Below, in pieces: positions 59,391 through 64,000 of a stretch of DNA of 64,000 bases. The translations under genes and the position numbers were made by a program. Every line of letters starts with the position of its first letter. Positions within the stretch are counted from its first letter, which is position 1. This DNA is from a virus (taxonomy: Duplodnaviria > Heunggongvirae > Uroviricota > Caudoviricetes), in IMG/VR virus record IMGVR_UViG_3300047666_001531; one strand, written 5' to 3'. The notes beneath the pieces are model-generated. The model saw nothing but the letters and a program-made list of their open reading frames with translations. It was not told the origin of the DNA and ran no database searches.

Positions 59391-59846
59391 GTGATCAGCG
59401 GCGGTCAAACTGGTGCCGATTTAGGTGGTTTGTTGGCTGCTGAGTGGATAGGAATACCTACTGGCGGCATGGCGGCGGCGGGTTATAAAACGGAAAGAGG
59501 TAAGCAACCTCTTCTGGGTACTCGCTTTAAGCTTGAACAGCATTCGTCTAGTCAATATCCCCCGCGTACAGAGCATAATGTACAGCATAGTTGTGTGACT
59601 ATTGTTTTTGCATCAAACTTAGCGTCTGCGGGTACGAAAGCAACAGTGAACTTCACAGTAAAACATAACAAAGAGTATTTGCTTGTAGACGTGAATACCC
59701 CTGATGTAGATGCGATAGTCGCATTTTTGAAGAAAACAAATCCATCGGTGGTTAATATTGCAGGAAACAGAGAGTCTGTTTCTGCTGGAATAACTAAGCA
59801 AACCCGTAAGGTTTTATATAAAGCATTATCGAAATTTCTGGTATAA
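59391..59846 (+). CDS. SLOG-superfamily (YpsA/LOG/Moco-carrier-like) protein, about 151 aa (GTG start, uncertain)
   Basis: VISGGQTGADLGGLLAAEWIGIPTGG is the N-terminal glycine-rich signature of YpsA/Mo-co-carrier/LOG Rossmannoid proteins. The ORF track shows the frame open from 59310. An alternative GTG at 59343 has a ggag SD. Confidence 0.45.
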   Translation: MISGGQTGADLGGLLAAEWIGIPTGGMAAAGYKTERGKQPLLGTRFKLEQHSSSQYPPRTEHNVQHSCVTIVFASNLASAGTKATVNFTVKHNKEYLLVDVNTPDVDAIVAFLKKTNPSVVNIAGNRESVSAGITKQTRKVLYKALSKFLV

Positions 59847-59907
59847 TGACTTTTCATTATCAAAATAAATTAATTCTAAAAGCCCGAGAGCTTTTACAGG
59901 AGCAGTT

Positions 59908-60339
59908 ATGCCTATAAACTTATTTCAATTCCCTGCGTTCGACCAGCGTAAAGTTACCGTCTGGTATTCCAAAGGCATTTCAATGCACATGATGGCGATT
60001 GGTGGTGTTAAAAAAGAGGGATTTTCTCTTGATGATGGTTATCCACTTGAAAAGACTCATGCGGCAGTTGTAGAGTATTACACTGACAACCACAAAAGCT
60101 TAGATGTGTGCGAAAGCACATTTTCATTAATGCAAGGTGAGGTTTGGTCACCAAACGGAGAAGCTAGAGAGCTAATCGAAAGCCTTGATGGTGTTAATCA
60201 TACATCTATGATGGTTGGTGATATTGTACAGATTGATGATGACTTATATTTATGTGCAACAGATTTTTCCGCTGAAGGGTTTGTTCATATTGGAAAGTTA
60301 CATGCCGGTGTTATTATTCCACAAAAGAAGCAGTCATGA
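59908..60339 (+). CDS. hypothetical protein, 143 aa
   Basis: acaggagcagttATG start. Confidence 0.45.
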   Translation: MPINLFQFPAFDQRKVTVWYSKGISMHMMAIGGVKKEGFSLDDGYPLEKTHAAVVEYYTDNHKSLDVCESTFSLMQGEVWSPNGEARELIESLDGVNHTSMMVGDIVQIDDDLYLCATDFSAEGFVHIGKLHAGVIIPQKKQS

Positions 60340-60989
60340 TGGATAAATTTATTGAAGTATCTCACCATCGCCAGTTTTTGTCAGAAGTAGCAGATCACAA
60401 TCTCGTTGTGAAGCAAGACGATGGCTTATACAAGCATTTATTGTTGCATAAGCCTGGTTCGTTCGAATATGCGTTTGAAGTGATTTCATTTCCGAGCCAC
60501 ATCATGATCACGGGCGACATGGGTACATATTGTTTTTCAAGAGTATCTGACATGTTCCGTTGGTTCATTAAAGATGGCGATAAATCTATGGACTCGCCTG
60601 AAATGGAGATGAGTCGTTGGTTTAACAAGCTTGTGTCAGTAGACAGTCAACTTGGCGCTAAAAAGAAAAACTTAGGTTTAGCATTAAGGCACATTGAAGA
60701 AAACCGTAATTTTTACTTGAAAGAGTATCCTGAGCACAAAGATGATATTCAAGAAGCGTTTGATGATCTGGTTGGTTGTGCTGAAATGGGCGTAGACGCC
60801 TTGCTAACTGGAATGTATGGCTTTGAACTCGTTTTGTGTGAAGAAGAGCATATGCCATTCTCTGATTTCGAACATAGCACCGTGGAAGCATATGTTCCTC
60901 AATTTGCTTGGTGTTGTTATGCAATAAATTACGCGATAGGCGAATATTTAAAATCAAAAACTAAAATTGATAAGTTGAAAAATGAATAA
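60336..60989 (+). CDS. hypothetical protein, 217 aa
   Basis: ATGA overlap with the upstream gene. Confidence 0.45.
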   Translation: MMDKFIEVSHHRQFLSEVADHNLVVKQDDGLYKHLLLHKPGSFEYAFEVISFPSHIMITGDMGTYCFSRVSDMFRWFIKDGDKSMDSPEMEMSRWFNKLVSVDSQLGAKKKNLGLALRHIEENRNFYLKEYPEHKDDIQEAFDDLVGCAEMGVDALLTGMYGFELVLCEEEHMPFSDFEHSTVEAYVPQFAWCCYAINYAIGEYLKSKTKIDKLKNE

Positions 60990-61008
60990 TTTGAATAATG
61001 GAGTGATA

Positions 61009-61587
61009 ATGGATTTGTCATTGCAATTAGACGGTGAAGTACAAGAAGTTTATATCAAAAAGTACGATGTTAAAGTAGAAAATGTTTCAGTATCACTTGT
61101 GTTCGAGTGCATACAACAAAACAAGTCAGGTCGTATTTCTATATGCGTTGGTAATAGAGTGTTACCTGAGTATTTATGTGTTTTTGAAAAAGCTCAAGAT
61201 GTGCTTGCAAACAGCTCTGTCATAGATGATTTGTTGATAGAGTCAACTGACTCGTTGGAAATTAGGCGTGTACTTGCTCTGGCCATTGGTGTTTTATCTA
61301 AATCCTTAAATGTGAAAGGTGAGGTGTTGATTGCTACAACATGTTCAATTGAAAAGACGTATCAGGATGTGATCAAGTCTTGTTGTGCTGGCTTTTCTTT
61401 AGACAGTTTAGGTTTCCACCCGAAATTATCTTTTAAAGATAATATGGGGATGAGCCACATAAACTTCCTCGAATTTATAATGGCAATTGAAGCGGCTTTT
61501 GGTATTGACGTGCCGGATGATGATATTGAGTCAAATGTTACTTATGGCAGCTTATTAAACGTGATCAAGAATCACATTAAAGATTGA
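61009..61587 (+). CDS. hypothetical protein with C-terminal acyl-carrier-protein-like domain, 192 aa
   Basis: C-terminus LGFHPKLSFKDNMGMSHINFLEFIMAIEAAFGIDVPDDD parallels ACP helix II (G-x-D-S-L...E-L-x-M-x-x-E-E-x-F-G-I-x-I-P). TGA stop lies inside the next -35. Confidence 0.4.
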   Translation: MDLSLQLDGEVQEVYIKKYDVKVENVSVSLVFECIQQNKSGRISICVGNRVLPEYLCVFEKAQDVLANSSVIDDLLIESTDSLEIRRVLALAIGVLSKSLNVKGEVLIATTCSIEKTYQDVIKSCCAGFSLDSLGFHPKLSFKDNMGMSHINFLEFIMAIEAAFGIDVPDDDIESNVTYGSLLNVIKNHIKD

Positions 61588-62078: not shown

Positions 62079-62285
62079 TACATCTTGTACCGCATTAGTT
62101 TTTTAGCTGCGTTAGTCGGTATGAGCGTGTAGCGCTCGCCATCTTCCAACCTTATTAGGTTAGTGCGAATGCGCTGGGCAACTCTTACGAACACCATTCA
62201 TTATTGTTGATTTTAACAAACTCATTAGAGTGATGAATAGTAGTGTTAATTGGAAGAGTCTATTGTCGTTGCTAGGAGTATTGTT

Positions 62286-63125
62286 ATGTCAAATATCCGT
62301 AAAATCGCCTCATCTATTGTTAGTGCATGTAAGAAAAAAGGGTTGAAGCAATCTGTTGTTCTTGATGTGTTAGCGAAATCACAAGGTTTTCGCTCTATAC
62401 AGTGTGCTGAGAGCACTAAAGCTAATTCAGACGATATATCTATGTCTGAAAAGTTAATAACGCGTGGTGTGTTAGCCAGAGCTTATCCTGGTCATGATGA
62501 TTTAGCCTTGAATGTGTTAAAAGAGTCATGTAATGATTTCGTTGAAGTTGGCGATACGTTATTTAGCTGGATGTGGTCGCTAACCAATAGTGGACTTATT
62601 GAAACTATTAAAGCCTTAGGTTTTGTAAATATGCAAGTGGGCTTTGTGGGAGAGTTGGTGTGTGGTGAAACGCCTGTGAAAAATCACTCACCAGTGTTGG
62701 AAAAAGCTTTTCCGGCGGAAGTCGTGAAGTTTTTACAAGTGGAGTTGAGAGAGTCCGGCAAGAATTTTGAAGATATTATTTATCAAGAACTAGGTGATTA
62801 CGTGTATAGCGTTTTAGCTGAGCTTTTGTCATTGGCTGTTGATTGCGGTGAAATTAATAACAATGGTGAACCGACTGTTTTCATTAATAACAGTAAAGAC
62901 AGTGTTTTTGTAATAAACGACGATGGCTTGGTGTGTGCTTCATTCAACTCTTATGGTTTTGAAATTCACGGAGGTCGTCAGTTCACCTTTGGTGATAAGA
63001 TAAGTAAGGCGAATGGTCGATGGTATGTCGGGAAAACAACGCAAGAAGATTGGTTGGATTTTAAAAGCCATATAGATAAACACCTAAACATACAGCTACC
63101 CGAAGATATTTTAATATTAAAATGA
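62286..63125 (+). CDS. hypothetical protein, 279 aa
   Basis: Refined to the ATG with aggag SD. Confidence 0.45.
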   Translation: MSNIRKIASSIVSACKKKGLKQSVVLDVLAKSQGFRSIQCAESTKANSDDISMSEKLITRGVLARAYPGHDDLALNVLKESCNDFVEVGDTLFSWMWSLTNSGLIETIKALGFVNMQVGFVGELVCGETPVKNHSPVLEKAFPAEVVKFLQVELRESGKNFEDIIYQELGDYVYSVLAELLSLAVDCGEINNNGEPTVFINNSKDSVFVINDDGLVCASFNSYGFEIHGGRQFTFGDKISKANGRWYVGKTTQEDWLDFKSHIDKHLNIQLPEDILILK

Positions 63126-63187
63126 TAATTTGATTTGTGCCTCACGATGAGGCAATTGATACATGCACGAGGCATGGAGGAAATATT

Positions 63188-63841
63188 ATGCAGGATAAAC
63201 CGAATGTTTTGTTGTCTGATTTAGATGGCGTTTACGTGGATTGGACGCAAGGTTTTGTTAAATACATGGAAAGCATTGGCTTCAAAGCACTGCACGCTCA
63301 ACCTGAAGTGTTCACAATGACAGATATATTTCCTGATGTTGAAAAGCCTTGGTTGCACATTAAAGACTATCAGCAGTCTGAGTTTTATGCACAAGTTAAA
63401 GCCTACGATGGTGCCTTAGAAGCTTATAAGCATCTTGTAGATAATGGCGTTAAGATAATTGCAGTATCAAGCTGTGGTCTTGATGAGCAGACTGTTAAAT
63501 CTCGCACCGCCTTTGTTGAGTCACAAGGTGTTTTTAGTGACATGATATTGCTTGAAATGGGTGCGCCAAAAATCGATGTGCTTAATAGTTTTGATAGATC
63601 GGCATTTATTGATGATCAGCCGGTTATTGCGATGGAAGGTTTGGAGGCAGGCCATATCGCCATGCTAAAAGCTATGCCCTACAACGCAGATGTATCGCTA
63701 AAAAACATCAATCGTATCGTTGACCTGTCTGAGATAAAAAATCACATGAAAATCGAGACACCGGCATTAGAGATTGTGCAAACAGCCCCCGATCTAAATT
63801 TGCGAGCGGAACAAAACAAGCCGTCAATGCGCATGAGGTGA
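63188..63841 (+). CDS. HAD-family 5'(3')-deoxyribonucleotidase-like (NT5C-type) protein, 217 aa
   Basis: N-terminal VLLSDLDGVYVDW matches NT5C motif I (D-x-D-G-V-x-x-D). IAVSS and FIDDQ match motifs II and IV. ggagg SD. Confidence 0.55.
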   Translation: MQDKPNVLLSDLDGVYVDWTQGFVKYMESIGFKALHAQPEVFTMTDIFPDVEKPWLHIKDYQQSEFYAQVKAYDGALEAYKHLVDNGVKIIAVSSCGLDEQTVKSRTAFVESQGVFSDMILLEMGAPKIDVLNSFDRSAFIDDQPVIAMEGLEAGHIAMLKAMPYNADVSLKNINRIVDLSEIKNHMKIETPALEIVQTAPDLNLRAEQNKPSMRMR

Positions 63842-63844
63842 TAG

Positions 63845-64000
63845 ATGTTGGTAAAAAAACTATCATTTAATAAAGATGTGCGCGTATTTTTTGTTGGTGA
63901 CATTCATGCTAGATACACGCTGCTAGTGCAGCAGCTTAAAGCAATAGGTTTTAGCCCAGAGAACGGTGACATACTAGTCTCTGTTGGCGATATTATTGAT
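63845..64000 (+). CDS. calcineurin-like metallophosphoesterase (Ser/Thr phosphatase or ApaH-like), N-terminal fragment, truncated by the window end
   Basis: VFFVGDIHARYT (GDxHG-type) and VSVGDIID (GDxxDRG-type) motifs. gaggtga SD. Confidence 0.5.
   Translation, partial: MLVKKLSFNKDVRVFFVGDIHARYTLLVQQLKAIGFSPENGDILVSVGDIID

Follow-up and report, generated by a model that had tools for sequence, protein, structure and literature searches.

Positions 59391-64000 of the 64,000-nucleotide stretch of viral DNA analyzed here (the window; Caudoviricetes, IMG/VR record IMGVR_UViG_3300047666_001531) carry a run of + strand genes whose products evoke the chemistry of nucleotides and of nicotinamide adenine dinucleotide (NAD). 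They include a SLOG protein, a protein with an acyl carrier protein (ACP) fold, an ADP-ribosyltransferase (ART), a HAD phosphatase, and a PPP-family phosphoesterase. We read these genes as independent, separately promoted accessory cassettes rather than as one co-functional system, with a probability of about 0.6, because the families are not linked outside one family of islands, cassettes turn over within that island family, and the units have separate promoters. An initial annotation of the window had seen a nucleotide-signaling or nucleic-acid-modification toolkit here, cautioning that it should not be called a co-functional system without co-occurrence data. The caution was right, whereas the toolkit as a co-functional unit gains no support from the co-occurrence search. 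The cassettes plausibly serve host takeover or counter-defense, and a counter-defense role for individual genes is plausible as well.

Linkage of the Gene Families Outside and Within the Island

The co-occurrence of homologs elsewhere, which the initial annotation had proposed as a check, was searched for four anchor families (the 217-residue, ART, SLOG, and PPP proteins) at about 170 unrelated loci in all. Most of these loci came from IMG/VR, with 5-10 kb of flanking sequence, and partners were detected by similarity (jackhmmer, E <= 1e-3). Apart from a single HAD homolog near an ART gene, no linkage emerged. Another family of the run was found at none of the 77 SLOG loci in IMG/VR and at none of the 66 PPP loci. 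Likewise, no other run family lies within 10 kb of the 217-residue protein at 18 IMG/VR loci and in two genomes (tblastn and iterated jackhmmer), nor is there a conserved partner; a scan of the genome collection with this family gave only two matches, both distant and actinobacterial. ART homologs were anchored at 13 metagenome loci, three of which are the same island. The 10 non-syntenic ones have no conserved partner and no SLOG, PP-binding, or Metallophos domain. The surroundings of the ART loci are plasmid- or phage-like (TrfA, ParM, DotH, NrdD).

Only relatives of the whole island retain the gene order, and these form about six lineages with protein identities of 30-75%. Four are sampled across the run (the window, L023/L034, L035, and L028/L036), and the partial contigs L195 and L197 represent two more. 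The 279-residue gene and the leader that precedes it are absent from the L028/L036 and L197 lineages, and in L197 and L036 the ART gene is followed directly by the HAD and PPP genes. Lineages differ in whether the 217- and 201-residue genes overlap.

Within the window, the run would comprise about four transcription units, each with its own sigma-70-type promoter. One would contain the 105-residue, SLOG, 143-, 217-, and 201-residue genes; the ART gene would stand alone; a third would join the leader, the 279-residue gene, and the HAD and PPP enzymes; and an upstream 141-residue gene would form the fourth. The first unit is preceded by a TG-extended, sigma-70-like site (TTGACA-17-TAAAAT; 58997..59025, + strand), predicted from its consensus match alone (11 of 12 positions). 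The word AAAATGATAAA, a TG-extended -10 element, occurs in the promoter-like sites before the 141-residue, ART (TG-extended TTGATA-17-TAAAAT; 61584..61612, + strand), and 279-residue genes (62051..62079, + strand), and a related TG-extended site, TGATAAAAT, lies before the 105-residue gene. With up to one mismatch, AAAATGATAAA has 20 matches against 7.4 expected, a count reached in 0 of 100 shuffles, and it probably marks a type of promoter particular to the island. Its + strand copies at window positions 1283, 11959, 12037, 40939, 58478, 61600, and 62065 are in spacers, 40-220 nucleotides upstream of + strand genes.

Several observations weigh against the independence of these cassettes. The order from SLOG to PPP persists across the four lineages sampled in full, whose proteins share only 30-75% identity, and some selection on the arrangement is conceivable. 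The HAD and PPP genes are always adjacent (0-3 nucleotides apart), and the 143- and 217-residue genes always abut or overlap. The sole exception among the ART anchors, L037, has a HAD homolog 6.5 kb away, and analogous partners that had diverged beyond recognition would escape detection by similarity. Alternatively, the run could be a single counter-defense pathway in which the SLOG protein senses or processes an ADP-ribose signal, the ART makes an ADP-ribose adduct, and the HAD and PPP enzymes trim the phosphates. Such a toolkit would agree with the order conserved in four island lineages, with the fusion of one ART relative to a 2H phosphoesterase, and with the fit of all the families to the viral NAD-ADP-ribose network (PMC9503650). 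It is nevertheless improbable, given the lack of co-occurrence at about 170 independent anchor loci, the separate promoter of each unit, the gain and loss of genes between lineages, and the absence of the usual Macro, NADAR, and Nudix partners.

The genes of the run fit the categories of Iyer et al. (2022) one by one, and the partners that define those categories are absent: neither Macro, NADAR, or Nudix proteins (signal processing) nor a ligase or kinase (RNA repair) was found near the run. A scan of the run against PADLOC-DB, which covers known anti-phage defense systems, gave nothing beyond a chance-level Cas3g match (E 0.011).

A Small ART Family Distinct from Tpt1

The 138-residue protein encoded at 61638..62054 (+ strand) had been annotated as a Tpt1-like ART. 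Its ART fold is supported, as the split beta-sheet of that fold is present in the protein, whereas membership in Tpt1/KptA does not hold. The protein matches no Pfam (nothing at E <= 1), NCBIfam, or PADLOC model. An exhaustive HMMER search nonetheless recovered 111 cluster representatives of its family, mostly 120-160 residues long. Judged from residue conservation, this is an uncurated H-[Y/C/F]-E family. Among 86 members, the putative catalytic and other conserved positions include H6 (within H6-G-T) in 85, Y36 in 80, and E78 in 77, the glutamate falling in a low-confidence part of the structure model. At position 26, 46 members have Tyr, 25 have Cys (the window protein among them), and 11 have Phe; P79, which follows the glutamate, is present in 86 of 86, and T28 and D72 are also conserved. 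Through this putative His/Tyr(Cys)/Glu active site, the small ART would ADP-ribosylate a host macromolecule.

In Tpt1 structures, an N-terminal RNA-binding lobe carries the catalytic Arg-His-Arg. The window ART begins four residues before the HGT strand, and its PDB alignments cover the NAD lobe only. Because it has no such N-terminal lobe and retains the glutamate of PARP- and diphtheria toxin-type enzymes, its sequence indicates that it is not a KptA/Tpt1 family member. The Tpt1/KptA profile PF01885 does not match it, and only 6 of 86 relatives match that profile, weakly (E >= 0.006). Relative to Tpt1/KptA and to PARP/diphtheria toxin ARTs, it is also shorter, its subfamily has Cys in place of the first Tyr, and it carries a C-terminal extension (W..G.IP.P...D..SL). 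AcrIF11, another small stand-alone ART of mobile elements, has no sequence-level similarity to it and is not among the ART profile matches at E <= 10, and this comparison gave no sign of anti-CRISPR activity. Fast-evolving phage ARTs have been described (Iyer et al., 2022; PMC9503650).

These features bear on a second way of joining the genes, in which a Tpt1-like ART would remove RNA 2'-phosphates with NAD+ while the HAD and PPP enzymes act on termini or on ADPr>p, much like the tRNA-repair neighborhoods of phages. RNA-repair neighborhoods centered on KptA or sirtuin do contain 2H, HAD, and calcineurin-like enzymes (Iyer et al., 2022; PMC9503650), one ART relative has a 2H fusion, and the ART gene stands directly before HAD-PPP in L197 and L036. 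An RNA-end healing module is still very unlikely here: the lobe with the catalytic Arg-His-Arg is missing from the ART, the conserved E78 is typical of PARP/diphtheria toxin-type transferases and not of Tpt1, neither an RNA ligase nor a kinase turned up nearby, and the linkage of ART, HAD, and PPP is absent from unrelated loci. Highly improbable, too, is an arrangement of one or more toxin-immunity pairs, with the ART or the PPP enzyme as toxin and an adjacent small protein neutralizing it. The island does encode HipBA, and other small cassettes lie beside the ART gene in related islands, but no neighbor of the ART homologs is conserved across 10 unrelated loci, the ART gene is separately promoted and overlaps no partner, and PADLOC gave no matches.

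Larger proteins containing ART relatives were also seen. P0076 (604 residues) is fused to a 2H/Acb1-like phosphoesterase domain, and P0057 lies within a 1791-residue protein that has no Pfam domains and is possibly of the polyvalent type. The fused partners of other relatives gave no Pfam clue beyond this 2H domain and a DUF3841 in P0027. Giant matches considered as polyvalent proteins (P0033, P0079, P0080, and P0101) were rejected as repeat-protein artifacts, with domains such as CARDB and DUF11. A preQ1-II riboswitch match at 61543-61640 spans the end of the 201-residue gene and the ART promoter, and the island also has a queuosine-salvage gene. The match was attributed to chance, as it scores 25.8 bits against a gathering threshold of 47 (E 0.46) and starts upstream of the promoter.

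A Structured Leader Before the 279-Residue Gene

Of all the DNA in the run, the 231-nucleotide spacer between the ART gene and the 279-residue gene (62286..63125, + strand) is conserved best; its identity is 81% with L034 and 65% with L035. Coding sequences of the run are 45-69% and 45-60% identical to these two lineages, respectively, and its other spacers 52-67% and 6-34%. A promoter (62051..62079) and a leader of about 200 nucleotides (62086..62285, + strand) are kept in all four lineages that have the 279-residue gene. The leader goes with that gene: it is absent wherever the gene is absent, and in L195 it lies downstream of an insertion. This insertion (L195 3099-4097, - strand) is a two-gene cassette, encoding a helix-turn-helix protein and a 238-residue protein, between the ART gene and the leader.

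Invariant in the leader are AUGAGCGUGUAGCGCUCGCCAUC, UGGCAACUCUUAC, and GUGUUAAUUGG, the last followed closely by GAGUCU. In the RNAalifold prediction, the leader forms five helices comprising 29 pairs, 11 of which show compensatory double changes: P1 (62087-62093/62115-62122), P2 (62123-62128/62132-62137), P3 (62142-62147/62252-62257), P4 (62148-62151/62158-62161), and P5 (62162-62167/62170-62175). P1 begins at about the predicted transcription start. Pairing holds in 98.3% of the alignment cells of this structure but in only 35-43% once the partners are slid, and none of 500 shuffles reaches the observed covariation, which comes from four sequences in only two clades. The structure is placed on the + strand because of its G-U pairs. 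The z-score of the single-sequence fold is only -1.25, and re-alignment of the central 60 nucleotides gave no covariation.

An invariant ACUCU in the leader has two possible pairing partners: AGAGU, overlapping the 3' strand of P3, and the Shine-Dalgarno sequence GGAGU. These alternatives suggest a translational switch that sequesters the Shine-Dalgarno sequence. We regard 62086-62285 as a candidate new cis-regulatory RNA, a structured 5' leader that would probably control translation of the 279-residue gene and probably also stand ahead of the expression of the HAD and PPP genes downstream. Like riboswitches and other 5' cis-regulatory leaders, it has about 200 nucleotides between promoter and Shine-Dalgarno sequence and a multi-helix junction, together with unpaired blocks that do not vary and a potential for alternative pairing with the Shine-Dalgarno site. 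Unlike riboswitches, it has no Rfam match and is seen in four examples only, all before one orphan gene. A search of 57800-64000 against Rfam found nothing at E <= 1 in the leader, with PyrD_leader (17.5 bits, E 2; 62050-62090) alone overlapping its 5' edge, and a covariance model of the leader found no further copy in 353 kb of sequence. Exact 21-mer matches in two GC-rich viral contigs were dismissed as chance, as they lie inside unrelated coding sequence.

The same segment might instead act as DNA (an operator array, a single-strand promoter, or an origin) or encode a tiny peptide. P2 is a perfect, invariant inverted repeat, a mini-open reading frame is invariant within the segment, and both the narrow basis of the covariation and the modest fold z-score noted above would suit such a role. 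Such a role is quite unlikely, since 11 pairs carry double compensatory changes, several G-U pairs would become A-C on the opposite strand, loop indels of one or two nucleotides rule out a conserved reading frame, and the conserved promoter lies directly upstream, with P1 at about the predicted start of transcription. The mini-open reading frame itself (AUG AGC GUG UAG, window 62121-62132) sits in the invariant P2 hairpin, either by coincidence or as a leader peptide. Returning to the structured RNA, it is doubtful that the leader represents a new class of ligand- or protein-sensing RNA whose ACUCU pairing with AGAGU or GGAGU switches on the 279-residue protein, the HAD enzyme, and the lambda-type phosphoesterase. 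If it does, the three genes concerned would make up a regulated module for nucleotide or phosphate processing in a mobile element. The leader is the one feature of the run that could be new.

No family was found for the 279-residue protein, in keeping with its initial description as an unknown; its gene is present in four lineages and absent from two. Its N-terminal 45 or so residues (62286-62420, MSNIRKIASSIVSACKKKGLKQSVVLDVLAKSQGFRSIQCAES) are near-invariant even in orthologs that are 33% identical overall, which suggests a separate, strongly constrained module. Scans of the viral collection with alignments of the 279-residue, ART, and HAD families found no relatives.

The SLOG Protein and the Overlapping Gene Set

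All eight + strand open reading frames of the initial annotation exist at or near their assigned positions, as does the row that they form. The SLOG/YpsA-type assignment holds firmly: the product of 59343..59846 (+ strand) matches PF12694 (cpYpsA) at E 1.6e-31 with 109.5 bits (cut-off 26.2), over profile positions 2-143 of 145. SLOG families share a conserved glycine-rich nucleotide loop and a C-terminal GNRE-type motif, and the SGGQxGADxGG and NIAGNRES blocks are invariant in the SLOG proteins of four lineages. Possible starts lie at 59310, 59343, and 59391. The true start is probably the GTG at 59343, favored because of an upstream GGAG and agreement with the gene call in L001. The start first assigned, 59391, is where the domain itself begins and is probably too far downstream. 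Just upstream, a 105-residue protein (59057..59374, + strand), for which no family was found, is syntenic in related islands.

Viral and mobile-element YpsA-like SLOG proteins are likewise stand-alone, about 150-170 residues long, and strong Pfam matches. PF12694-type domains are common in IMG/VR contigs (190 matches), sometimes inside giant polyvalent proteins. Viral YpsA-like SLOG domains are mostly stand-alone proteins and are predicted to degrade or sense immune signals of the cyclic ADP-ribose type (Iyer et al., 2022; PMC9503650). As proposed for them, the window protein would bind or cleave a nucleotide derived from NAD or ADP-ribose. In contrast to such viral systems, this run has no Macro, NADAR, or Nudix partner.

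The next three genes overlap, as first described, by 4 and 8 nucleotides (59908-60339, 60336-60989, and 60982-61587, all + strand). The first encodes a 143-residue protein for which no family was found and which would be translationally coupled to the second by the 4-nucleotide overlap. The second encodes the 217-residue protein of family phrog_4657, a prophage early-region family with no assigned function. Its homolog in a Cupriavidus prophage is flanked by ERF and YqaJ within the early region. The structure model of the 217-residue protein is confident, with no fold match in the PDB.

The third gene encodes a 201-residue protein with a fast-evolving N-terminal part and a C-terminal ACP-fold domain. 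The domain matches PF00550 (24.5 bits, cut-off 20.8; E 3.2e-5) and the phage ACP family phrog_5934 (E 7.6e-13), and hhalign aligns it with Escherichia coli AcpP at 94.5% probability (E 8e-8). It shares the four-helix ACP fold and a conserved helix II with acyl carrier proteins, and differs from them in being fused to a 120-residue N-terminal part without assigned function. In ACPs, the serine of the DSL motif carries 4'-phosphopantetheine. At the position of AcpP Ser36 the window protein has His and three orthologs have Glu, and no Ser or Thr is conserved in the phosphopantetheine turn of the window protein and its orthologs. The ACP-like end proposed for the last gene of the set is real as a fold, but the conserved phosphopantetheine serine is absent. 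Because that serine is replaced by His or Glu, the 201-residue protein is, by its sequence, not a conventional carrier protein. No synthase or phosphopantetheinyl transferase was detected near the gene, and the ACP-fold domain would serve as an unmodified acidic binding module.

The Paired Phosphatases

The gene at 63188..63841 (+ strand) encodes a HAD-superfamily phosphatase. This is evident from motifs I (DxDG), II (S/T), III (K), and IV (DD), whose residues D11, D13, S95, K128, and D142-D143 are invariant in five sequences, and from the match to phrog_420 (E 5e-24). The more specific assignment to NT5C made initially finds only a sub-threshold match (PF06941, 19.9 bits, cut-off 24.8), and E is about 0.25 at best against the mdN/dNT structures in the PDB.

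Three nucleotides after the HAD stop codon begins the gene of a lambda-phosphatase-like PPP/Metallophos enzyme, whose 5' end (63845..64000, + strand) closes the window; in L002 the protein is 281 residues long and its gene reaches the window-equivalent of 64690. Its classification as a PPP-family phosphoesterase is confirmed by a profile of four orthologs that matches lambda phosphatase (1G5B) at E 2e-29 and by conservation of all the metal-binding motifs (GDIHA, GDIIDSG, GNHE, VVHAG, and VGHS). Matches to the NCBIfam PrpA/B models (E 1e-28) are under the equivalog cut-offs. It shares GDxH, GDxxD, GNHE, and the later His with the lambda Ser/Thr phosphatase (NinI) and PrpA-PrpB and matches phrog_246 ("NinI-like"). 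It differs from lambda phosphatase in having about 100 extra residues between GNHE and the next His, and in always being paired with a HAD gene in this island. By family, the two enzymes would strip phosphates from nucleotides or phosphoproteins.

The Surrounding Island

The run would be the distal end of a mobile-element-like island in an uncultured bacterium from a marine metagenome. The island spans at least 75 kb, the 4.6-kb run forms its distal part, and its edge lies about 5 kb past the window end, at a TonB-dependent receptor. A 336-kb contig (L002) is 100% identical to window 50336-64000 and continues 7 kb beyond it. GC content is 36-42% across the window, and nearly all genes are on the + strand. 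No tRNAs were detected in the window, and no conjugation or virion genes were seen in the island. Proteins of the window turned up in no source other than metagenome assemblies (JGI, ENA, and Logan), on contigs as long as 583 kb, and a DNA-level search of the region against phage and plasmid collections matched dsbD fragments and no other relatives.

Upstream genes of the island encode a C5 methylase, SspB, TnpB, DarA_C, GmrSD_N, ERCC4, HAD_SAK_2, and a BrxR-type winged helix-turn-helix protein. Its middle part encodes a tyrosine recombinase (a short form, window 24291-25031), dUTPase_2, YqiJ/flotillin, HipA, a HATPase_c_3 protein, Q_salvage, RNase H, and DnaD_N. The 4.6-kb run is not alone in clustering nucleotide-related domains: dUTPase_2, Q_salvage, RNase H, ERCC4, HAD_SAK_2, and the C5 methylase occur elsewhere in the island. 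Conflict-type genes are abundant at window 206-45600 and L047 1-10000, where the C5 methylase, DarA_C, GmrSD_N, the BrxR-like protein, and the ERCC4 nuclease are accompanied by HipBA, YqiJ/flotillin, the HATPase_c_3 protein, and dUTPase_2.

Nearer the run, a block of about 9.6 kb (window ~48300-57870) contains Q_salvage (48937-49809), several genes without assignment, and dsbD (55992-57818), with a strong terminator directly after dsbD (57831-57861). The block is missing from all related islands, in which the homolog of 46727-48283 abuts that of 57875-58468, and it looks like a lineage-specific insertion.

Implications

A row of domains in a mobile element can suggest NAD or nucleotide chemistry without constituting a system; in this case, it would be a by-product of cassette accretion. 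As accessory, host-interaction cassettes of a mobile element, the genes of the run belong to a kind already known. Worth curating are the small-ART family, with about 110 clusters and no Pfam model; the phrog_4657 family, with its confident model and no relative of solved structure; and the conserved structured leader RNA, which has no Rfam match. Should the leader turn out to be a sensor, it would help to identify the signal that a mobile element monitors when deploying phosphatases.

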